From IMG/VR virus record IMGVR_UViG_3300043410_001708, positions 42,270-106,269 of that record: a stretch of 64,000 nt of DNA, one strand, 5' to 3'. Below are positions 4,786-42,353 of the stretch, piece after piece. Both the position numbers and the translations under genes were made by a program. The number at the start of each line of letters is the position of its first letter. The first letter of the stretch is position 1. Origin of the DNA: a virus. The notes beneath the pieces were generated by a model. It made no database searches. It saw only the letters and a program-made list of their open reading frames with translations, and was not told the DNA's origin.

Positions 4786-4859
4786 TGGAGCGGGATATCA
4801 GAATCGAACTGATGACGAAAGATTGGAAATCTCTAGTTTTGCCATTAAACTAATCCCGC
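4786..4859 (-). tRNA. tRNA-Gly(TCC)
   Basis: Anticodon arm AGAGA-TTTCCAA-TCTTT, TTCGATT T loop, CCA. Confidence 0.92.
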
Positions 4860-4935: not shown

Positions 4936-6363
4936 TCACAATACTTTGTAACGGTCATCCATGATGGTTTTAAGCATCACAGATTCTGGTGTAAAGGTTT
5001 CTAAGTCACCCGCCAACAGTGGTTTTACGACTGCTGGTGAGAAACCAGATACCAATGCAGTACCAGAAGTGTCGAACTTTACTGGAGCGTTGCCGTATGC
5101 GGCATTCAAGTTCCAGAATACAACCTTTGGCAAAGTGTATCCTGCTTCTTTGTACTTACGTGCAATCATCTGCATAGCAGAGTCATCATGTCTAACGCAA
5201 GCGTTAAATTGCATGTCTGACAGAATCAATACCATCGCTGGCATTTCTTCTTGTGGCACGCCACCTTTTACTGCTACATCAAGGATTTTTGCAAATGCCT
5301 TGTGTAGGTCGGTAGACATACCCCAATCAGATTTAACCATTTGGTCAATCTTTTGATTGATGTTACCTTTCAAGTGCAACAATTCTGGATTGGTAGAGAA
5401 AGTTAGGAAGGTGTCCTTGAACTTGCCTTCATTCTTATCTGCCAAGTATAGTCCCAAAGAGACTGCTACTTCCAAACAGGTTAGACCTGATTTGGAACCA
5501 TAACCACCTGCAGCGCAGGTCATTGAACCAGAAACATCCACCAAAGGTAGAATGTTTGCATCGCCAACAAAGTTAGGCAAAGCCTCCCATTGTTTTTGCA
5601 CCAAGTCCAATTCGGTCTTGTCGAATTTCATGTAACCACCGATACGGCCTTTCAGCACATCGTATGGGAACACAGCACCTGCATTAACCTTAACTTCTGG
5701 ATTATCACCCTTAACCAACGAAGCAACATATGCTGCATAAGTTGGAGTGTTACGGTTAAAAGCCTTCTTGTAACGGGATGCCGCTACGGAAGGTACGTGT
5801 GAGAAATTGATGGAATCCCAGTCTTTCGCACACATTTGAGTTTCAACCACTTTGGTCATTTCAACCAAAGACTTACGGTAAAACTTTGGGGACATACCAA
5901 AGAACTGACGGATTTCAGCCGCTAGTTTACCTTGGCGAGGAGTCCACTTTGCAGCCAATCCATTCTTCGCACGAAGCGCATCACCCAACATAGTGAATGC
6001 TGCTGACTTCATAACATCAGAATCGAATACAAAAATGTCGTCCCAACGGCCCAATTCAGGAACCTTTGTCAACAATGCTTTTGCGGCTTCTACGTCATTC
6101 TTTTCCAAATAACGCAAGATAGTACGGAACGATTCACGTTCACCGGCACCACCACGAGCATCACGTAACCAAGCAGCAACACGCAAAGCGAGTTCACGGT
6201 TTTCTGCCATTGCAGCTGCGAAAGCAGGCACAATGTTTTTGCCACGGGAAGCACCTGCATTGTAGAACAAATCTACAACTGCATTAGCAGTGGACTTACG
6301 AGCCTTCATACCGTTTGCGGTACGGGCATCTTGATTAACAACGGCATCTACAAAAGTTGACAT
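4936..6363 (-). CDS. Ro60/TROVE-like helical domain + vWA protein (DUF2828-type)
   Basis: N-terminal DLF, RDARGGAGER, GRWDD, AKWTPR motifs; C-terminal vWA MIDAS DVSGSM...STD...ILSDMQF...FWNL. Confidence 0.8.
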   Translation of the reverse strand: MSTFVDAVVNQDARTANGMKARKSTANAVVDLFYNAGASRGKNIVPAFAAAMAENRELALRVAAWLRDARGGAGERESFRTILRYLEKNDVEAAKALLTKVPELGRWDDIFVFDSDVMKSAAFTMLGDALRAKNGLAAKWTPRQGKLAAEIRQFFGMSPKFYRKSLVEMTKVVETQMCAKDWDSINFSHVPSVAASRYKKAFNRNTPTYAAYVASLVKGDNPEVKVNAGAVFPYDVLKGRIGGYMKFDKTELDLVQKQWEALPNFVGDANILPLVDVSGSMTCAAGGYGSKSGLTCLEVAVSLGLYLADKNEGKFKDTFLTFSTNPELLHLKGNINQKIDQMVKSDWGMSTDLHKAFAKILDVAVKGGVPQEEMPAMVLILSDMQFNACVRHDDSAMQMIARKYKEAGYTLPKVVFWNLNAAYGNAPVKFDTSGTALVSGFSPAVVKPLLAGDLETFTPESVMLKTIMDDRYKVL

Positions 6364-6384
6364 AACTTACTCCTCATAAAAAAA

Positions 6385-6504
6385 CAACAGAATACATTTT
6401 TTAGCGCACTACCAATTGTGCTATTCACGCCGAAGCGTAAAACAGGATTCGAACCTGTAACCTCTCCGTTATAAGCGGAAAAATTGTTTGCTGTGAGTAT
6501 TCTA
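6385..6504 (-). ncRNA. Y-RNA-like element E1 carrying a circularly permuted tRNA-Ile(UAU)
   Basis: Terminal stem AGAATAC/GTATTCT, ACAGCAA motif; inside, in order: anticodon arm, T arm, acceptor closed by UUCG, D arm. Confidence 0.8.
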
Positions 6505-6692: not shown

Positions 6693-6744
6693 ATTGTAAC
6701 ACAAAAATTTGTTGTAGTCAAGCAGTATGTTGTAAACATACCAC
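6693..6744 (-). promoter_or_regulatory. Sigma70 promoter with upstream palindromic site, driving E2-E1-Ro-like gene
   Basis: TTGACT-17-TACAAT; GTTGT-N6-ACCAC at 6729-6744, 7 bp from the -35. Confidence 0.75.
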
Positions 6745-6750
6745 AATATT

Positions 6751-6824
6751 TGGTGCCCCATGACAGAATCGAACTGCCGTACCCGGATTACAAAACCGGT
6801 GTAATACCATTATACTAATAGGGC
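6751..6824 (-). tRNA. tRNA-Thr(TGT)
   Basis: Anticodon loop TTTGTAA, cloverleaf, CCA. Confidence 0.92.
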
Positions 6825-6832
6825 AAAAAACT

Positions 6833-6907
6833 TGGAGCGGGTAGTGGGAATCGAACCCACAACTAAACCTTGGCAAGGTCTTGTGTTACCACTAGCACCA
6901 TACCCGC
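6833..6907 (-). tRNA. tRNA-Gly(GCC)
   Basis: AGACC-TTGCCAA-GGTTT, CCA. Confidence 0.93.
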
Positions 6908-6916
6908 ATCATGTGT

Positions 6917-6945
6917 ATTATATATGCTTTACAAACAATTGTCAA
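6917..6945 (-). promoter_or_regulatory. Sigma70 promoter for tRNA-Gly(GCC)/Thr(TGT)
   Basis: TTGACA-17-TATAAT. Confidence 0.85.
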
Positions 6946-6965
6946 GCACATTTTTAAAAAATATT

Positions 6966-7049
6966 TGGTACGAGTAACCGGAGTCGAACCGGTACGCACA
7001 AGGCGGCAGATTTTAAGTCTGCTGGGTCTACCAATTCCCCCATACTCGC
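6966..7049 (-). tRNA. tRNA-Leu(TAA)
   Basis: GCAGA-CTTAAAA-TCTGC, long variable arm, CCA. Confidence 0.93.
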
Positions 7050-7050
7050 A

Positions 7051-7635
7051 TCACATGGCAGGTCCGTTTCCATTACGGAAACCGACCTCACCACCTTCTT
7101 CTTTGATTCGTTTCATAACATCTTCAAAAAGAATAGGACGAAAATCTGTTTGTTCAACACAAACACAATGATAACGAACATCTGGTGTGTCCAGTTCTTG
7201 ACCTCCGTTCCATGTCATCATCACACGACCTGTATGAAGGTGACCGTGAATGTTTGTTCCGAAACGACCAAGACTGGCGGGATGAATTGGAATATGTGAA
7301 AGAATCATTCCGTTCATTACATGATACGCACGAAGTTCACGGAAGTGTATTCTATATTCATCATCACGGAAGATATCGTGGTTACCACGAATAAGAACTT
7401 TATCACCGTTAAGTCTATGCATAATGCTAAGTGCTTTACGATTGATTACAACATCACCAAGATGATATACTTTATCAGTTGGCTTTACTGTTTCGTTCCA
7501 ACGCTTAACCATTTCTTCATCCATTTCATTTGGATCGGTCCATGGTCTAATCTTTTCACCTGTTATGGAGTCGGTGAATCTACACACACCAGCGTGACCA
7601 AAGTGTGTGTCACTTACTAAAAATACTGATGGCAT
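7051..7635 (-). CDS. Calcineurin-like metallophosphoesterase
   Basis: SDTHFGH, HLGD, GNHD, HGHLH motifs; start moved to MPSVFLVSD behind AGGAG. Confidence 0.9.
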   Translation of the reverse strand: MPSVFLVSDTHFGHAGVCRFTDSITGEKIRPWTDPNEMDEEMVKRWNETVKPTDKVYHLGDVVINRKALSIMHRLNGDKVLIRGNHDIFRDDEYRIHFRELRAYHVMNGMILSHIPIHPASLGRFGTNIHGHLHTGRVMMTWNGGQELDTPDVRYHCVCVEQTDFRPILFEDVMKRIKEEGGEVGFRNGNGPAM

Positions 7636-7653
7636 AATAAACTCCTGAAAAAA

Positions 7654-7728
7654 TGGCCCGGCGTGAGGGAATCGAACCCCCATTCGCACTTTAGAAGAAT
7701 GCTGTCCTATCCATTGAACGAACGCCAG
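7654..7728 (-). tRNA. tRNA-Arg(TCT)
   Basis: Loop CTTCTAA, cloverleaf, CCA. Confidence 0.9.
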
Positions 7729-7733
7729 AAAAA

Positions 7734-8174
7734 TCATACTCGGATGTATTCGTAATTAACTGTTTCTTCATTTTCTCTAAAAACAATAGCGCCGTTCTTC
7801 AAGTGAAAACGCTTTGCCATTTCAGTTTTTGGAGATAATGTCACAAATCTTTTTATGTATGGCATATTATTTTCTATGTGTGATACTGCATCAAATATAA
7901 GTGTTCCACCAGCACCTGGTGCATAACTCCATATTGTATAAAATACCGCAATCTCTGGATCGTTTACCTTTTCAAACAATTCAGATTCTTTTGTCGGAAC
8001 ATTTGTCTGATAACTTACGCATGTGATTGCTAATACTTTACCATTTGTATCCCGAAGAACAAAAATATCTTTGTTATTACCTACTCTTTCCGTAGTTGGA
8101 ATGTTAGGCCTGACAGGATCTTCATCCAATAAATTAAAAAAACTATCTGTGATGGATTTTATAATATGTAACAT
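7734..8174 (-). CDS. Small GNAT-fold protein resembling the malonyl-CoA decarboxylase catalytic domain
   Basis: AVFYTIWS, FVTLSP and RFHLKNGA recall the MCD motifs AVFYSIS, FxTLSP and RFHLxNGA. Confidence 0.6.
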   Translation of the reverse strand: MLHIIKSITDSFFNLLDEDPVRPNIPTTERVGNNKDIFVLRDTNGKVLAITCVSYQTNVPTKESELFEKVNDPEIAVFYTIWSYAPGAGGTLIFDAVSHIENNMPYIKRFVTLSPKTEMAKRFHLKNGAIVFRENEETVNYEYIRV

Positions 8175-8190
8175 GATAACTTAAATATAA

Positions 8191-8267
8191 TGGTGCCCCA
8201 GAGGAGACTCGAACTCCTAAAATTTGGTTTCTAAGACCAACACGTATACCAATTCCGTCACCGGGGC
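8191..8267 (-). tRNA. tRNA-Leu(TAG), short variable loop
   Basis: TTGGT-CTTAGAA-ACCAA, 77 nt, A73, CCA. Confidence 0.88.
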
Positions 8268-8280
8268 AATAAATACTTAT

Positions 8281-8505
8281 ATGATACCTTACGAACAAAG
8301 ACAAACAGTAAAACCACTTTATGAGTTATTCTCAAATGAAACATATGTGCCTCATGCTTATTATTGTATTGAATCTGATTTTATCGAATCATATGTTACT
8401 GAGATAAAATCTTTTAATGATGATGAAATATATATTCAACCTGAAAAAGAGTTTGTCTTAACAACATTAAAACAAGTTGGTGCTCCTACTAAGAATCGAA
8501 CTTAG
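8281..8505 (+). CDS. Hypothetical acidic protein, antisense within the tRNA array
   Basis: ATG at 8281 preceded by late-promoter-like ATAAATA; fills the gap between two tRNAs, 3' end overlaps tRNA-Thr(GGT). Confidence 0.45.
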   Translation: MIPYEQRQTVKPLYELFSNETYVPHAYYCIESDFIESYVTEIKSFNDDEIYIQPEKEFVLTTLKQVGAPTKNRT

Positions 8506-8551
8506 GATACATCCTTACCATGGATGTGGTATGCCATTTACCTATAAGAGC
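8478..8551 (-). tRNA. tRNA-Thr(GGT)
   Basis: CATCC-ATGGTAA-GGATG, CCA. Confidence 0.9.
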
Positions 8552-8556
8552 ATGAT

Positions 8557-8631
8557 TGGTGGGTCGTCAGAGAATCAAACTCTGTTCTTCCGGTTAAGAG
8601 CCGGTTGCTTCATCACTTAAGCTTACAACCC
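8557..8631 (-). tRNA. tRNA-Lys(CTT)
   Basis: CCGG-CTCTTAA-CCGG, CCA. Confidence 0.88.
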
Positions 8632-8634
8632 ATA

Positions 8635-8711
8635 TGGTACCCAAGGTGGGATTCGAGCCCACATAATCTTGCTTTTGAGACAAGCACGTATACCAATTCC
8701 GTCACTTGGGT
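8635..8711 (-). tRNA. tRNA-Leu(CAA), short variable loop
   Basis: CTTGT-CTCAAAA-GCAAG, 77 nt, same D arm as Leu(TAG), CCA. Confidence 0.88.
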
Positions 8712-8716
8712 ATATA

Positions 8717-8818
8717 CAACAGGATAGTTTTTTTACAGTGGGAATTGAACCCACAAGGTTTGCTTAGAAGGCAAATTGCGAACCATTCGCATGTGAATTT
8801 TTTGCTGAACCTATCCTA
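8717..8818 (-). ncRNA. Y-RNA-like element E3 carrying a tRNA-Arg(UCU) mimic
   Basis: Stem AGGATAG/CTATCCT, TCAGCAA; D-like arm, TTTGC-CTTCTAA-GCAAA, GTGGG-TTCAATT-CCCAC; no CCA. Confidence 0.8.
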
Positions 8819-8823
8819 AAACT

Positions 8824-8899
8824 TGGTGCTGCCTAGTAGAATCGAACTACTTTCCGAGGTTCTTCAGACCCCTGCTATGACCACATCAGCTAAAGCAGC
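8824..8899 (-). tRNA. tRNA-Phe(GAA)
   Basis: GGGGT-CTGAAGA-ACCTC, CCA. Confidence 0.92.
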
Positions 8900-8907
8900 A
8901 TATTGAA

Positions 8908-9074
8908 TTTGTAAGTATTGGGACCTCCCTCATTTCCCAACATTTTACCGGTATTTTCTGTGAAGCGGCCGACCGGTTAGAGGTACGTAGTAATAGTTGA
9001 TACTTGGCATCGGCAAAGCACTATCCTCATTCTTGTATGCCTACAAAAACTTTCTCAACATCTACACTTACAAA
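8908..9074 (-). ncRNA. Structured inter-tRNA RNA (unknown)
   Basis: 9-bp closing stem TTTGTAAGT/ACTTACAAA with internal stems GGCAT/ATGCC, ACCGGT/ACCGGT, TTGGGA/TCCCAA. Confidence 0.5.
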
Positions 9075-9077
9075 ACT

Positions 9078-9152
9078 TGGTACCTTGTGACGGGATCGAA
9101 CCGCCGACCTTCTCCTTGTAAGGGAGACACTCTACCGCTGAGTTAACAAGGC
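9078..9152 (-). tRNA. tRNA-Val(TAC)
   Basis: TCTCC-CTTACAA-GGAGA, CCA. Confidence 0.93.
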
Positions 9153-9165
9153 ATAAAATTTACTT

Positions 9166-9240
9166 TGGGGAGATATATGAGAATCGAACTCATGATAACG
9201 GAATCACAACCCGTGGTTTTGCCACTAAACTAATATCTCC
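9166..9240 (-). tRNA. tRNA-His(GTG)
   Basis: Loop TTGTGAT, G-1:C73, CCA. Confidence 0.92.
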
Positions 9241-9288
9241 CCAAAGTAAACTTTGGAATTTTTAACCGTGTTTATTCACGGGGGTCTG

Positions 9289-9777
9289 TTAGACCTGCAA
9301 AGCTTCTTGTTCTGCCAAGATTCTTTTCAATCTGTCAGCACAAAAACTTGCAGCTGGTGCGTCTGGTTTAACCATAGGTGTCATGTTACATGTACCCTTG
9401 ATATAACCAATCGCTTGTTGTACAACACATGAACTTCCGTACAAGTCATCTTTGTTTAAGTCCAAATGAACTTCAACATGGAAATCTTCTAATACATCAG
9501 CCAAGTCTTGGAACAATTCTGAAACCTTATACACTTCGGTCATTAACCGCATTGCAGGTTTACTTTTCTTATGGTCATAATCCAACTCACGTTGAACGAA
9601 ACCAAAAATCTTACAACCATGGCGGCCATCAATATGAACTACGACAGCCAAAGCATAGTCTGCATACCATACACCGTTTACACGGATACGTTCTGAGTCA
9701 GCACCCAAATATACTTTCGTATCTGGTCCTTGACTTGCAAGGAATTGCTTAACTTCTTGTATGTCGAACTTTTTCAT
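9289..9777 (-). CDS. RNase H-like YkuK-family protein
   Basis: VYLGADS, LMTEV, EVHLDLN, AASFCAD acidic motifs; start moved to MKKFDIQ. Confidence 0.75.
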   Translation of the reverse strand: MKKFDIQEVKQFLASQGPDTKVYLGADSERIRVNGVWYADYALAVVVHIDGRHGCKIFGFVQRELDYDHKKSKPAMRLMTEVYKVSELFQDLADVLEDFHVEVHLDLNKDDLYGSSCVVQQAIGYIKGTCNMTPMVKPDAPAASFCADRLKRILAEQEALQV

Positions 9778-9807
9778 ATCAATCACCTTTCTTTTTTTTA
9801 CTAACAC

Positions 9808-9881
9808 TGGCATCCCGACAGGGACTCGAACCCCGACCAACAGTTTTGGAGACTGGTATGCTGCCATTACACTATCGAGAT
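9808..9881 (-). tRNA. tRNA-Trp(CCA)
   Basis: CAGT-CTCCAAA-ACTG, G73, CCA. Confidence 0.92.
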
Positions 9882-9887
9882 ATAATA

Positions 9888-9951
9888 CAACAGGATAGAT
9901 TTTACTTTTCAAGTTACAAGTTTGAAGTATTTTATTGCTGTTACTATCCTA
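9888..9951 (-). ncRNA. Y-RNA-like element E4 (minimal)
   Basis: Stem AGGATAG/CTATCCT, ACAGCAA, single hairpin with anticodon-like loop CTTGTAA. Confidence 0.75.
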
Positions 9952-9955
9952 AAAA

Positions 9956-10029
9956 TGGTCCTCAGAACAAGAATCGAACTTGTGATGGCCGGTTATCAGC
10001 CGACTGTTATACCATTTAACTATCCGAGG
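9956..10029 (-). tRNA. tRNA-Ile(GAT)
   Basis: GTCGG-CTGATAA-CCGGC, CCA. Confidence 0.92.
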
Positions 10030-10033
10030 AATA

Positions 10034-10109
10034 TGGAGGGTCTTGAGGGATTCAAACCCCCGACCAATTGCTTCGTAGGCAACTACTCTGTTCACTGAGC
10101 TAAAGACCC
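10034..10109 (-). tRNA. tRNA-Arg(ACG)
   Basis: GTTGC-CTACGAA-GCAAT, CCA. Confidence 0.92.
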
Positions 10110-10115
10110 ATAATC

Positions 10116-10190
10116 TGGTGGTTCAGGTGAGAATCGAACTCACACAAGGCACCGTATGAAGATGCTGCACTGCCACTATGCTACTGAACC
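10116..10190 (-). tRNA. tRNA-Met(CAT), elongator-like
   Basis: GCATC-TTCATAC-GGTGC, fully paired acceptor, CCA. Confidence 0.85.
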
Positions 10191-10195
10191 AAATT

Positions 10196-10270
10196 TGGTG
10201 GACCGAGGGGGAATCGAACCCCCAACTGTGACTTGCAAGGCCACTGTGTTCCCAATTATACCATCAGCCC
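10196..10270 (-). tRNA. tRNA-Ala(TGC)
   Basis: GTGGC-CTTGCAA-GTCAC, G3:U70, CCA. Confidence 0.93.
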
Positions 10271-10326
10271 AAATTTGTTGTTGACAATTTATCTCATTAT
10301 ACGCCGTCAACAAAGGCGAGTATTAC

Positions 10327-10400
10327 TGGTCTCGGTGGCAAGAATCGAACTTGCGCCACATGCTCCCAAAGCACGGATGATACCATTTCACCACACCGAG
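10327..10400 (-). tRNA. tRNA-Pro(TGG)
   Basis: CGTGC-TTTGGGA-GCATG, CCA. Confidence 0.92.
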
Positions 10401-10406
10401 AAAATA

Positions 10407-10470
10407 CAACAGGATCGTTTTTGTCGCTAGACATCCAAAAGTTAGCTTGTTTATTGCTGAACCGATCCTA
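10407..10470 (-). ncRNA. Y-RNA-like element E5 (minimal)
   Basis: Stem AGGATCG/CGATCCT, TCAGCAA, TGTTG tail, small internal hairpin GCTA...TAGC. Confidence 0.75.
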
Positions 10471-10474
10471 AAAC

Positions 10475-10549
10475 TGGCTCCACAGGCAGGGATCGAACCT
10501 ACGACCAATTGATTAACAGTCAACTGCACTACCGCTGTGCTACTGTGGA
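10475..10549 (-). tRNA. tRNA-Asn(GTT)
   Basis: GTTGA-CTGTTAA-TCAAT, CCA. Confidence 0.93.
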
Positions 10550-10556
10550 ATATATC

Positions 10557-10631
10557 TGGCGGTCCCAAGGGGTAACGATCCCCTTCTTTATGCGTGACAG
10601 GCATACGTGCGTCCATGAACACTTTGAGACC
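10557..10631 (-). tRNA. tRNA-Asp(GTC)
   Basis: TATGC-CTGTCAC-GCATA, atypical T loop ATCGTTA, CCA. Confidence 0.88.
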
Positions 10632-10635
10632 AAAT

Positions 10636-10827
10636 ATTAGTACAAGCTACTGATTTTCCACGTCAGCCCTTGATTGAGCGGTTTCTCTGTCCATCCCTTT
10701 TATCTGGTACCTGTGTGCAGAGGGATACTGCCTATCAGAGCCTGAGTATTTCTCTCGCTAACGGTTTTCTGCCACCGGATCTCTATCGTTAATCAAACGC
10801 TACTTTAACGAAAAGTAGTAACGAGAT
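10636..10827 (-). ncRNA. Structured inter-tRNA RNA (~190 nt, unknown)
   Basis: GC-richer spacer with nested stems CTACTTT/AAAGTAG, TTGATT/AATCAA, CTCTG/CAGAG, TATCCCT/AGGGATG, GCTGA/TCAGT. Confidence 0.55.
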
Positions 10828-10828
10828 T

Positions 10829-10915
10829 TGGTGGAGACGGTGTGAGTCGAACACACAATGCCCTGAGGGCGGCGGATTTACAGTCCACTGGGGTTACCAA
10901 TTTTCCTACATCTCC
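10829..10915 (-). tRNA. tRNA-Tyr(GTA)
   Basis: GTGGA-CTGTAAA-TCCGC, long variable arm, CCA. Confidence 0.93.
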
Positions 10916-10923
10916 AAATTTTT

Positions 10924-10998
10924 TGGTAGGGGCACAGAGAATCGAACTCTGATTATCTGGTTAAAAGCCAGGTACTTTCGCCGTTAAGTTATACCCCC
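10924..10998 (-). tRNA. tRNA-Lys(TTT)
   Basis: CTGG-CTTTTAA-CCAG, CCA. Confidence 0.92.
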
Positions 10999-11004
10999 AT
11001 AATT

Positions 11005-11132
11005 TACCATTTGTTTTGCTGACGCACTATATGCTATGCTTCAACGGAATAGCTGCAGCGTTACCGTTTATTAACATAGTTACTCAGCATTGAACGTTTC
11101 TGCTGTGGCTTACATCAGCAAAACAAATGGTA
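11005..11132 (-). ncRNA. Structured spacer closed by a perfect 18-bp stem
   Basis: TACCATTTGTTTTGCTGA (11005-11022) is the exact reverse complement of 11115-11132; two internal hairpins. Confidence 0.6.
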
Positions 11133-11202
11133 CACCTAAGGAGAATCGAACTCCTCTTTCCGCCTTGAAAGGGCAGCGTCCTAACCGATAGACGATAGGT
11201 GC
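11128..11202 (-). tRNA. tRNA-Glu(TTC)
   Basis: CTGCC-CTTTCAA-GGCGG, CCA. Confidence 0.92.
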
Positions 11203-11205
11203 AAA

Positions 11206-11231
11206 AAACTACAACAAATTTTTAAAGAACA
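11206..11231 (-). promoter_or_regulatory. boxA-containing 26-nt leader repeat, copy 2
   Basis: TGTTCTTTAAAAATTTGTTGTAGTTT, identical to 12075-12100; resembles rrn boxA TGCTCTTTAACA. Confidence 0.75.
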
Positions 11232-11259
11232 TTTGATTGATTTCTCAATTCATAGATGA

Positions 11260-11311
11260 AGTATAACACAACCATGAATCTCTGTCAACCAGTGTGTTGT
11301 ATTTCTACAAC
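11260..11311 (-). promoter_or_regulatory. Sigma70 promoter with upstream palindrome
   Basis: TTGACA-17-TATACT; GTTGT-N6-ACAAC at 11296-11311, 7 bp from the -35. Confidence 0.85.
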
Positions 11312-11316
11312 GTGTT

Positions 11317-11392
11317 TGGAGTAGGTGACAGGAATCGAACCTGCATACAAGTGGTTTGCAATCACTTCCCTAGCCTTTCGGGTCACACCTAC
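11317..11392 (-). tRNA. tRNA-Cys(GCA)
   Basis: Loop TTGCAAA, U73, CCA. Confidence 0.9.
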
Positions 11393-11628
11393 ACTAATTT
11401 TTTCCTTGAACTACGGTGTGTTTCATCACGCCGCATAGTCCAATCGTAAGAGTTACCATCTGGTAACTTCTTATCTTTAACTTCATCATATCCAAACTTA
11501 CCAACGAATTCCATTTCACCATTAGTGATTGTTACGAATTCGTTAACAGTCTTGGCAAAGAACATTGCACCTGACAATGTTTCATGTTTCCATTCTTTCA
11601 ATTTTGTTTTTACTATCCACATACTCAT
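11389..11628 (-). CDS. Hypothetical protein
   Basis: 79 aa ORF filling the gap between two tRNAs. Confidence 0.6.
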   Translation of the reverse strand: MSMWIVKTKLKEWKHETLSGAMFFAKTVNEFVTITNGEMEFVGKFGYDEVKDKKLPDGNSYDWTMRRDETHRSSRKKLV

Positions 11629-11636
11629 CTTTCATT

Positions 11637-11728
11637 TGGTACCAGCGGTGAGAATCGAACTCACTCAAGAACGCTAATCTGGCGCTAAAAGGTGTATAAG
11701 ACCTCTCTGACTACCAAGTCTCGCTGGC
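11637..11728 (-). tRNA. Non-canonical tRNA with TAT anticodon (Ile/AUA) and long variable arm
   Basis: Acceptor GCCAGCG/CGCTGGT-A-CCA, mini D arm GACT-TGGT-AGTC, loop CTTATAC, variable stem, normal T arm. Confidence 0.75.
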
Positions 11729-11730
11729 AT

Positions 11731-11820
11731 TGGTGGAGAGTCAGGGAGTCGAACCCTGTGACCTACTTTCGTAAATCTACGGATTAGCAATCCGCTGCAT
11801 TACCATCCTGCCCACTCTCC
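11731..11820 (-). tRNA. tRNA-Ser(GCT)
   Basis: GCGGA-TTGCTAA-TCCGT, long variable arm, CCA. Confidence 0.92.
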
Positions 11821-11826
11821 GAATTT

Positions 11827-11916
11827 TGGTGGAAGCGGTGAGATTCGAACTCACGGACCCTTTCGGATCGGCAGTTTTCAAGACTGCTGCAATAAACCGG
11901 ACTCTGCCACACTTCC
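11827..11916 (-). tRNA. tRNA-Ser(TGA)
   Basis: GCAGT-CTTGAAA-ACTGC, long variable arm, CCA. Confidence 0.92.
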
Positions 11917-11997
11917 ATATAGAAACACACTACTGGCTATACACTCAGCGTCCCAAGTGCTACCAGAATCTAACTGGCGTAATGTGTTTTTATATGG
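11915..11997 (-). ncRNA. Structured spacer closed by an 18/19-bp stem
   Basis: 11915-11933 pairs with 11979-11997; two internal hairpins form a three-way junction. Confidence 0.55.
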
Positions 11998-12070
11998 CAG
12001 GGGTTATCAGATTCGAACTGATGATGACGATTTCAAAGACCGTTGCCTTAGGCCACTAGGCGAAACCCCA
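11995..12070 (-). tRNA. tRNA-Gln(TTG)
   Basis: ACGGT-CTTTGAA-ATCGT, G73, CCA; first tRNA of the array. Confidence 0.9.
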
Positions 12071-12074
12071 ACAT

Positions 12075-12100
12075 AAACTACAACAAATTTTTAAAGAACA
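12075..12100 (-). promoter_or_regulatory. boxA-containing 26-nt leader repeat, copy 1
   Basis: TGTTCTTTAAAAATTTGTTGTAGTTT just downstream of a promoter and upstream of the first tRNA. Confidence 0.75.
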
Positions 12101-12107
12101 AGTGTGT

Positions 12108-12158
12108 ATTGTAACAGAACCAAAGGTCCTGGCAACTACACTGTTGTATTGAAACAAC
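12108..12158 (-). promoter_or_regulatory. Sigma70-like promoter with upstream palindrome
   Basis: TTGCCA-16-TACAAT with extended -10 TG; GTTGT-N6-ACAAC at 12143-12158, 7 bp from the -35. Confidence 0.7.
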
Positions 12159-12162
12159 AAAC

Positions 12163-12196
12163 AAAAAACCCTAGTAGATTTCTCTTACTAGGGTCT
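12163..12196 (-). terminator. Intrinsic terminator (attenuator 3:4 hairpin)
   Basis: ACCCTAGTA/TACTAGGGT 9-bp stem followed by TTTTTGTTTG. Confidence 0.85.
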
Positions 12197-12227
12197 TGTG
12201 TTTGGAGTCTTTTTTAGAACTTCTGTT

Positions 12228-12341
12228 TTAGTTCTCCATCTTCACACAAAACCCGGTTGCAATCGCCCATGAGCTATCAGCGCAATTAACTGTGCGATAC
12301 TCTGGTTGCAACGTAAAGGGTTTATGAGATATGAGAGACAC
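12228..12341 (-). CDS. Putative attenuator leader peptide (37 aa, all 20 amino acids)
   Basis: GTG start after AGAAAG; MSLISHKPFTLQPEYRTVNCADSSWAIATGFCVKMEN; lies between a promoter and a terminator with overlapping alternative stems. Confidence 0.7.
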   Translation of the reverse strand: MSLISHKPFTLQPEYRTVNCADSSWAIATGFCVKMEN

Positions 12342-12371
12342 TTTTTTCTTTCTAAAATTTAATATATGTGT

Positions 12372-12400
12372 ATTATATAGGAACTTTTTAACCTCGGCAA
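12372..12400 (-). promoter_or_regulatory. Sigma70 promoter of the leader/tRNA array
   Basis: TTGCCG-17-TATAAT. Confidence 0.8.
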
Positions 12401-40388: not shown

Positions 40389-42353
40389 TTAGTCAAATAC
40401 ACTGTGTGGAAGATTCCAACATCCGTTTGTAAATATTAAAGTCAAAACAGCAAATGCTTGATTTCCTCTAAATGGTAACCACCAAGATGCCTGACCTTCA
40501 TATATGTAACCATTACCATCAGACCAACGTGCATTTGCAATTGTCATGCTTGTATATTCATTACCAGCAAAAGGACTAGATGGAACAATATACATGATTT
40601 GACCTTCAACACCATCAGATAAATGATATTGATTCGGTCCGTTACTACTTTGTGGTGTCAATTTATTAACAGAGACAGTTAAATCTAATTCAAATGGATC
40701 AGTTTCATTCCATTCTGCACTAGCTGTTCTGGTGGTTATTGAACCAACATTTGCAACACCTTTGCCACTAAATTCTATAGCCAAATCTGAACCAGAAGAA
40801 GGTATCACTACAGTACCGTTGGAATTAAAATTCCAATTTTGTGTAAACACATTTAACGTCTGTTCATTTTCAGGACTTGGGTTTTGATATAAAACAACAT
40901 TCATTGTGTATGCATAATTGGTATTTTCTGCAATCGTTAATGTTGTATTGCCTGAACCAACTGTTGAACTTGTTGAAGTTCTGGCTTCTGGTACAGTAAC
41001 ATATGTAAAATCACCCCATGATGTTGATTCTGCACCAAAATAAGTGCCAGACAAATTACCATCTATAGGCAATTGAAATACTGTTGTAATTGCTGCATTG
41101 CTTTGTGGAAAACTATAACCTGTTCCAACAATAAAATTGCCTCTAATATCTATTTCATGTGGTGTTGGTGTTGATGAGCCAGCACCAAGAATTTGAAGTG
41201 CATTGGCCCATGCAATAGAACCATCATCCGCATCTATCTTATAAACACAGAAACCATTTTGTTCATTTGATACTTGACCGTGGCCCATTGCATATAGATA
41301 ACCATTACTATATTTTATGGTTACTATTTCTGGATTATTTCCAACACCAAGAATTTCTTTTTCCCAAACTAATGAATTATCTGGTTCAAATTTGTAAATG
41401 TTTGTGCTTGTTGCTGCATACCAATTGTTTGATGAATCATAACTCAAAGAAACTATTGTATCATCATTATCATTTACTTTGTTTGACCACTGATAAACAC
41501 CTTCTGTATCAAACTTATGCACAAAACCATTATCAGAACCAACGTAAATACCACCTCTATTTGGCAACGCAATCACTGCCTCTGCATTTGGAATGTCTGC
41601 ATTAAAATGTGTGAAATATAATTCACCAGTTATATCTAAACCTGTGATTAAGTTGTGACCGCCAACATAGTAAGGAAATTCTTCATCATCAACAACAATA
41701 CCGTATGAATCAACTGAATCTGAAACTAATGTGCTCCATACATTTTGACCAAGATAATTAAATTTTGTAACAAGTGTTGAATTGTCATCTGGTATATTTG
41801 TCAATAAATACACGTTGTTATTTGCATCAACAGCAACACCAGCAGAATAACTATCCAATAAAACACTATCCACATTTGCGGCTGGTACCGATTTTCTCCA
41901 GTAAATATTTCCGTATGGATCAAATTTAATAAGGGTTGATTGTACCAAATTTGTGACGGTATTTGGTGTTGTCATTGAAACTAAAATGTTATTTTCACTA
42001 TCATAAGCAACACCACTTGGCCATGAATAACCATTTTGTGAAAGTGTTTCACCAAATAACATACCCCATGCTTTACGACTATAATGGTCATTAGCAATTT
42101 GTACTTCCGTATTGCTATACATTATAGTTTTATCAAACAAAATGTTACCTAATGATGCAGTGTTTGCTTTGTTAAAGGCATTTTGTGCTAGATTTTGGTT
42201 GGTTTCATAATAAGTATTAGATGTATTAGCATTGTTTGAGACTGCGGTATACAGCTCGGTGAAATTACTATTTGTTTTGATAAAGGCGCCTCTTAACGTA
42301 TCGCCTTTACCATCGTTTGCTCTAATACCAATATTGATAGTTTGTTTAGACAT
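40389..42353 (-). CDS. Virion protein with gp9/gp10-like N-terminus and beta-propeller-like repeats
   Basis: INIG..ANDG.GD.LR.AF.K.N.NF.ELY N-terminus; repeated KF(D/N)..G...W blades. Confidence 0.7.
   Translation of the reverse strand: MSKQTINIGIRANDGKGDTLRGAFIKTNSNFTELYTAVSNNANTSNTYYETNQNLAQNAFNKANTASLGNILFDKTIMYSNTEVQIANDHYSRKAWGMLFGETLSQNGYSWPSGVAYDSENNILVSMTTPNTVTNLVQSTLIKFDPYGNIYWRKSVPAANVDSVLLDSYSAGVAVDANNNVYLLTNIPDDNSTLVTKFNYLGQNVWSTLVSDSVDSYGIVVDDEEFPYYVGGHNLITGLDITGELYFTHFNADIPNAEAVIALPNRGGIYVGSDNGFVHKFDTEGVYQWSNKVNDNDDTIVSLSYDSSNNWYAATSTNIYKFEPDNSLVWEKEILGVGNNPEIVTIKYSNGYLYAMGHGQVSNEQNGFCVYKIDADDGSIAWANALQILGAGSSTPTPHEIDIRGNFIVGTGYSFPQSNAAITTVFQLPIDGNLSGTYFGAESTSWGDFTYVTVPEARTSTSSTVGSGNTTLTIAENTNYAYTMNVVLYQNPSPENEQTLNVFTQNWNFNSNGTVVIPSSGSDLAIEFSGKGVANVGSITTRTASAEWNETDPFELDLTVSVNKLTPQSSNGPNQYHLSDGVEGQIMYIVPSSPFAGNEYTSMTIANARWSDGNGYIYEGQASWWLPFRGNQAFAVLTLIFTNGCWNLPHSVFD

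Follow-up and report, generated by a model that had tools for sequence, protein, structure and literature searches.

An rRNA-operon-like arrangement of boxA leaders and a co-varying long-range complement around a phage tRNA array

This study concerns a tRNA array located in a 64,000-nucleotide stretch of DNA (the window; positions 42,270 to 106,269 of the IMG/VR virus record IMGVR_UViG_3300043410_001708), and the two kinds of elements by which the array is bracketed: a boxA of the type found in ribosomal RNA (rrn) operons, present in two leaders, and a single long-range complement of these leaders, the trailer, located near the end of the array. The source contig (106 kb, with a G+C content of ~37%) belongs to an uncultured freshwater phage that is T4-like, encoding a gp43-type polymerase and a gp44-type clamp loader. 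A GenBank search for close phage relatives found none, the matches being short and tRNA-sized only. We consider it probable that the array combines Nus-factor antitermination with an rRNA-style leader-trailer RNA helix and is thus built like pre-rRNA; the phage seems to borrow the transcription and trimming design of the cell's rRNA for its own tRNAs.

The tRNA array and its bracketing elements

Twenty-seven tRNA genes are located on the minus strand from 12070 to 6751 (positions are those of the window), together with a few additional tRNA-like RNAs indicated by Rfam and four open reading frames (ORFs; 7051-7737, 7734-8174, 9289-9912 and 11389-11628), two of which have matches to phage families. 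The span measures 5.4 kb, and the ORFs fill approximately one third of it. An initial annotation of this DNA, made from the sequence alone, had described a mostly untranslated transcript of ~5.3 kb, a description that is close in length and to which the coding third has to be added.

Two copies of a 26-mer, exact at 12075-12100 and at 11206-11231 on the minus strand, lie just after two promoters, as the initial annotation had observed; shuffled sequences predict zero matches. The promoters are of the sigma-70 type, and each copy is followed by the tRNA that opens the respective unit. A 16-nt segment of the 26-mer has a single exact inverted copy at 6703-6718, and a search of the whole 106-kb contig found the 16-mer at these three places only. 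The inverted copy sits 33 nt past tRNA-Thr(UGU) (6751-6824, minus strand, as are all elements of the bracket), which is the final tRNA in the bracket and the last one ahead of a YrlA-like RNA and a Ro-like gene. The earlier description of an exact complement following the last tRNA holds for the main array; one further tRNA, tRNA-Gly(UCC) (4786-4859), lies outside the bracket, past the trailer.

The array is headed by promoter P1 (12108-12135; TTGCCA and TACAAT separated by 16 nt, TG-extended, matching the consensus at 10 of 12 positions), which is found at the same place in relatives. The first boxA copy (12088-12100) is located 8 nt past the predicted -10 element, at or next to the 5' end of the transcript, and the first leader strand of the putative helix (12076-12093), which could form 16 Watson-Crick pairs plus a G.U pair at either end, shares 6 nt with the 3' end of this boxA. 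The first tRNA of the unit, tRNA-Gln(UUG) (11995-12070), starts 4 nt past the 26-mer. The second unit begins with promoter P2 (11260-11288; TTGACA, 17 nt, TATACT, TG-extended, 11 of 12), followed by a boxB-like hairpin of 5 bp with a GAAA loop (11236-11249) and, 4 nt later and 29 nt past the predicted -10 element of P2, by the second boxA copy (11219-11231). The second leader strand (11207-11224), likewise a complement of the trailer, precedes tRNA-Glu(UUC) (11128-11202), the first tRNA downstream of P2, which starts 3 nt past the 26-mer. The trailer strand (6702-6719), complementary to both leaders, is located within a third promoter, P3 (6693-6721; TTGACT, 17 nt, TACAAT), which heads the YrlA-like RNA and the Ro-like gene, and covers part of the -35 element of P3 plus its spacer.

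The boxA leaders

Both boxA cores read GTTCTTTAAAA and match perfectly the consensus GYTCTTTAANA, which was derived from functional Escherichia coli boxA elements (Baniulyte et al. 2017, PMC5725501). They are located on the sense strand of the transcribed leader, close to the promoter (the start sites are predicted), and the two matches to the consensus in the 106-kb contig are both at the leaders. When compared with rrnB of E. coli MG1655, 11 of the 13 boxA positions were identical, or 14 of 16 with the following TTT counted. The first 16 nt of the 26-mer were also scanned against species-representative genomes. An exact copy was found twice in a betaproteobacterial rrn locus (L205), located, by Rfam placement, 189 nt upstream of 16S and 242 nt upstream of 23S rRNA, and these are the two canonical boxA sites, in the 16S leader and in the 23S spacer. 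The matches listed included 16S leaders of Burkholderiaceae and other Betaproteobacteria as well as 16S-23S spacers of Pseudomonas-like genomes, so that at least these taxa carry this boxA. The resemblance to rrn boxA noted in the initial annotation therefore extends to identity with real rrn boxA elements.

Conservation of the leaders was evaluated in 124 related loci. A perfect boxA was present in the 50 nt upstream of tRNA-Gln in 28 of 46 distinct regions and of tRNA-Glu in 29 of 46, and upstream of other tRNAs in two of ~1200 regions. The 13-mer of the relatives varies only at positions that the consensus tolerates, sometimes towards the E. coli form, and the 13 nt located 3' of boxA vary freely while boxA stays constant. 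The boxB-like hairpin in the P2 leader displays both-side changes in two of its five pairs, and in the P2 leaders of some relatives it is replaced at the same place by unrelated hairpins; a hairpin before boxA that is compensated or replaced in this manner is what would be expected of an rrn-type boxB. By every available sequence test, the first 13 nt of the 26-mer are an rrn-type boxA, through which NusB-NusE would be bound and resistance to Rho conferred.

The leader-trailer complement

The pairing between leader and trailer in the window, 16 exact pairs and two G.U pairs, extends across 4.5 kb for the second leader and 5.4 kb for the first. An unbiased partner search, in which each leader was compared with up to 12 kb of downstream sequence, identified at least seven leader types (A-E, G and H, of which A is that of the window), which are named by the bases that follow boxA. 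Every one of them possesses a complement of its own, 0-34 nt past a tRNA close to where the array ends. Close relatives carry an exact inverted copy, and in others both sides have changed together. The initial annotation had proposed that its reading be judged by whether the inverted copy is present and co-varies in relatives, and on this point it is borne out. The z scores over composition shuffles were 5-10 for types A-D and 3-4 for types E, G and H, and the duplexes of the individual types contained 16-24 pairs with energies of -20 to -25 kcal/mol (~-20 kcal/mol in the window), compared with ~-6 kcal/mol for shuffled trailers. In a type B relative with a 98%-complete genome, the 16-mer characteristic of that type was found exactly three times, as two leaders and one trailer. 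The partner in L029, with a z of 2.1 under Watson-Crick scoring, was retained solely for its homologous position; candidate partners in L077 and L082 were dropped as being at chance level (z ~2), and the partner search with the later leaders of L052 and L066 gave nothing over background.

Two further pairings were observed. In L101, L109 and L110, 12 nt (ACAACAAATTTT) that partially complement the leader follow tRNA-Pro; they are located downstream of an internal promoter and upstream of the following tRNA, and are absent from the window. In the distant relative L048 (3899-5527), pairing of the first leader (-22 kcal/mol) involves a segment directly before the second boxA, and this segment forms a small hairpin in itself, making the pairing ambiguous.

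It is highly improbable that the inverted copy is functionless, having arisen as a by-product of promoter-cassette shuffling or of gene conversion between short repeats, with boxA alone being of importance. T4-type phages do shuffle promoter-plus-hairpin cassettes, and distant relatives hold boxA with no partner. Such shuffling, however, would yield direct and not inverted repeats, and it would not account for the repeated matched changes, the near-constant energy over unrelated sequences or the fixed site past a tRNA 3' end.

The mismatches within the helices provided information on whether the pairing operates in RNA or DNA. The helices were delimited by scoring in which G.U pairs earned nothing, and the non-Watson-Crick positions inside them comprised eight independent G.U or U.G pairs, one A.C and three transversions. 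The excess of G.U over A.C (8 vs 1; one-sided binomial p ~0.02) favours RNA, because under neutral drift of two DNA copies G.U and A.C would be equally frequent.

The location of the trailers was also informative. The trailer shares bases with the -35 element and spacer of a promoter in the window and in most relatives, and it is retained without such a promoter in some relatives: in L102 it occupies a 22-nt spacer separating two tRNAs, which leaves no room for a promoter, and in L088 and L067 it abuts the 3' end of a tRNA, with no -35 element. These promoterless trailers favour a role in RNA, and compaction is a possible explanation of the overlap with P3. The leader carries GTCAA in types B, E and I, the complement of which contains the -35 core, and where the promoter is present the G of TTGAC wobble-pairs with a U of the leader.

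The same overlap is an argument for a DNA operator, which we consider distinctly unlikely. A phage or host protein would bind the 16 bp over the -35 element and spacer of P3 and just past the starts of P1 and P2, thereby shutting the tRNA and Ro regions together, and the co-variation would represent co-evolution of the protein and its site. All three copies are indeed located at promoters. An operator would be expected to possess dyad symmetry or to occur at many sites at regulated promoters, but the 16-mer has no dyad symmetry, and it occurs at three sites only, both in the contig and in the 98%-complete relative. Moreover, there are at least seven site sequences although the Ro-like proteins of phages with differing leader types are 71-99% identical to that of the window, so that the binding specificity would have had to change repeatedly. 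The retention of the trailer in places lacking a promoter argues in the same direction, as does the G.U-compatibility, by 8 to 1, of leader/trailer differences on the transcribed strand, a bias that a DNA site does not predict.

A specific form of this alternative, a DNA site containing a GTTGT half-operator, had been put forward in the initial annotation and was rejected here. The leader has lost GTTGT in types B, C, E, G and H, while the GTTGT/ACAAC palindromes located upstream of the -35 boxes are unchanged there, and the palindromes are therefore elements separate from the leader, an independence that likewise favours RNA; the lack of conservation of the motif in the leader also counts against an operator in general. 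In the window, palindromes or hairpins of this type are located at 12143-12158, 11296-11311 and 6725-6741 (minus strand), 3-6 nt upstream of the -35 elements of P1, P2 and P3, and the one ahead of the trailer displays a compensatory change in relatives (GGTAT/ATACC vs GGCAT/ATGTC). They could be the 3'-end hairpin of an upstream RNA or a protein site. An antisense promoter in the leader was considered as well and rejected, as the reverse complement of the window leader, inspected by eye, contains poor -35 and -10 hexamers.

The position of the helix relative to boxA differs among the types. Types A, B, C and E have a helix strand that includes the 3' end of boxA. For most types the strand starts 5-6 nt upstream of where boxA ends; for types G and H, which show no overlap, the start is up to 2 nt beyond boxA. 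This bears on a rather unlikely alternative, in which boxA functions as proposed and the trailer is a stop or reset signal instead of a processing stalk. In one version, the trailer would pair with the final 5-6 nt of boxA once the array has been transcribed, and NusB-NusE would thereby be removed from the polymerase; in the other, a long-range hairpin would form just ahead of the trailer's own U run. Antiterminated transcription would in both cases end ahead of P3. The coverage of the boxA 3' end in types A, B, C and E is consistent with such a signal, as are the T run in which the trailer ends and its location on the next promoter in most relatives. On the other hand, the overlap is missing in types G and H, an AU-rich stem would be a poor terminator, and a stop at the trailer of L102 would silence the tRNA that begins 4 nt beyond it and lacks its own promoter.

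Antitermination coupled to a processing helix, the reading that we prefer, would operate as follows. Transcription would start at the two host-type early promoters, P1 and P2, and the first bases of each transcript would bear the rrn-type boxA, with the small boxB-like hairpin ahead of it in the transcript from P2. The boxA would load the host factors NusB-NusE(S10), NusA, NusG and SuhB onto RNA polymerase; this and the following protein steps we infer from the elements described above. The polymerase would thereby become fast and Rho-resistant over the ~5.4 kb (from P1) or 4.5 kb (from P2) that encode the tRNAs, small RNAs and few ORFs. As boxA would be kept at the polymerase, the leader would stay near the RNA exit, and the helix could form as the trailer emerges, with the 16-18 nt that begin inside boxA pairing with the RNA 33 nt past tRNA-Thr at ~-20 kcal/mol. 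The helix, the counterpart of the one around 16S or 23S rRNA, would set the ends of the precursor and would likely be cleaved by host RNase III. Neither a NusB homologue nor an RNase III domain was found in the contig or in the 98%-complete relative, so that host factors would do the work. The rRNA-operon-like design suggested in the initial annotation is thus supported by the sequence tests; the location of the trailer inside P3 had been missed.

An extension of this reading, which we regard as doubtful, is that the trailer carries two codes: as RNA, its pairing would hide the end of boxA and free the Nus factors, and as DNA, it would serve as the -35 element and spacer of P3. If this were true, antitermination would terminate itself at the end of the array, and phages would employ the rrn antitermination complex as a portable tether with which to gauge where an RNA cassette of several genes ends.

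Several points weigh against an antiterminated precursor closed by a helix. Cleavage by RNase P 3-4 nt after the leader would occur well before the trailer is made, and the leader would consequently need to remain at the polymerase or to function in trans. The helix of the window is AU-rich and, having just 16 Watson-Crick and two G.U pairs, is short for RNase III, and a single trailer serves two leaders. The function of the trailer as a -35 element and spacer may leave room for an additional role at the DNA level, and duplex energies failed to separate RNA from DNA: the sense duplex was better than the antisense duplex in 13 of 22 cases, and extra spurious pairs dominate these energies. No partner above background was found for the distant boxA carriers L070, L056, L063, L047, L078 and L082, and because these relatives hold boxA with no detectable partner, the helix would be the add-on of one clade. 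Finally, the metatranscriptome data consist of short assembled contigs with no ends and no strand, from which transcript ends cannot be mapped.

Four metatranscriptome libraries contained both the array and the Ro-like gene, and the contig depth over the gene was 10-100 times that over the tRNA array. Depth climbed downstream of P3, nothing was found upstream of ~12430, and no contig bridging the trailer was present among the RNA contigs listed from the four runs. The genes downstream of P3 are a YrlA-like Y RNA (6378-6490, minus strand; an Rfam score of 36.5 bits, below the gathering score) and, directly downstream of it, a gene for a Ro/DUF2828-like 'RNA-binding protein' (phrog_850; 4936-6363, minus strand). 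This module is absent from L102 and L117; there (L102, 7662-7760; L117, 7903-8000) tRNA-Gly(UCC) is followed by a small RNA, whose acceptor-like stem ends in CCA, and then by a GroES-like gene.

Two additional transcription units were noted at the locus. A promoter with a perfect consensus (12/12; 6917-6945, minus strand) is located inside the bracket and drives the last two tRNAs, Gly-GCC and Thr-UGU; it lacks boxA and has hardly any leader. Upstream of P1, a small separate unit (12163-12400, minus strand) contains a promoter (12400-12372), a short ORF and a strong terminator-like hairpin (12168-12194).

Relation to known systems

The bacterial rrn leader is the closest counterpart of the phage leaders, with the same order of promoter, optional hairpin, boxA and helix strand. 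In E. coli rrnB, as read in this study, P2, a boxB hairpin and boxA are followed after 2-3 nt by the leader strand, whose complement follows 16S rRNA; in the betaproteobacterial rrn locus with the identical 16-nt boxA, the helix strand begins 3 nt after boxA and its partner is located ~20 nt past 16S rRNA. Phage and rrn thus share a partner strand positioned just beyond the 3' end of a mature RNA. The length of the phage helix is close to the functional threshold reported by Warner et al., according to whom 30S biogenesis requires a helix of at least 17 bp, and altering the spacing between boxA and helix has the same consequence as mutating boxA, which fits with tethering as an aid to helix formation (PMC10250234). 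The differences are also clear. The phage bracket is not an rrn operon, as it holds ~25 tRNAs, small RNAs and four ORFs and no rRNA; its helix is shorter than the >30 bp reported in Enterobacteriaceae and extends 5-6 nt into boxA; a single trailer serves both leaders and is also the -35 element and spacer of the next promoter; and the whole arrangement is phage-borne.

Consensus boxA elements as targets of Nus factors outside rRNA are known from the leaders of CRISPR arrays and from the 5' untranslated region of suhB. In CRISPR arrays, which are long and non-coding, Nus factors that counteract Rho are recruited by a consensus boxA located after the promoter (Stringer et al. 2020, cited in bioRxiv 10.64898/2026.07.09.737519), whereas the boxA of suhB promotes termination and does not prevent it (Baniulyte et al. 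2017, PMC5725501). In contrast to the phage array, these are host genes, and a leader-trailer helix is mentioned neither in PMC5725501 nor in bioRxiv 10.64898/2026.07.09.737519.

The nut sites of phage lambda are similar in that an early phage transcript uses a host-type boxA to modify RNA polymerase. In nut sites boxA precedes a boxB hairpin to which the N protein binds; the leaders described here differ, as the hairpin, where present, is located upstream of boxA, as in rrn, and the P1 leader has no hairpin. No N-like gene was seen in the phage, no search having been aimed at one.

The tRNA clusters of T4, T5 and Vibrio phage nt-1 resemble the array in that tRNAs are mixed with small stable RNAs and short ORFs and are served by early or middle promoters. 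The boxA consensus was found neither at nor upstream of these three arrays on the coding strand, and genome-wide matches in the three phages were at the level of a reversed-pattern control. T5 (NC_005859.1) contains the boxA consensus, GCTCTTTAAAA, at 4978-4988 and 116509-116519 (minus strand), ~111.5 kb apart and near either end of the record; these two matches may be due to chance or may be a real signal.

Papers on boxA retrieved by full-text searches concerned rrn, lambda, suhB and CRISPR arrays, and none concerned phage tRNA arrays. The tRNA clusters of T4, T5 and nt-1 lack boxA, which may be the reason why the design has not been described. BoxA and the leader-trailer helix have been regarded as devices of rRNA operons, with boxA lately extended to suhB and CRISPR arrays. 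The boxA sequence also provides a clue to the hosts of uncultured phages; as a lead only, it points here to Pseudomonadota, possibly Burkholderiaceae.

In conclusion, boxA leaders may explain how long and mostly untranslated phage arrays evade Rho. The array and its relatives further represent a natural, small and sequence-diverse system for asking whether tethering by boxA promotes the formation of a long-range helix, a question that is open for rRNA (PMC10250234). The finding of boxA together with co-varying helix strands at the borders of a phage's tRNA array suggests a scheme in which the host design for transcription and maturation of rRNA is copied by phages and applied to tRNAs, which would add a new layer to the takeover of the translation apparatus.

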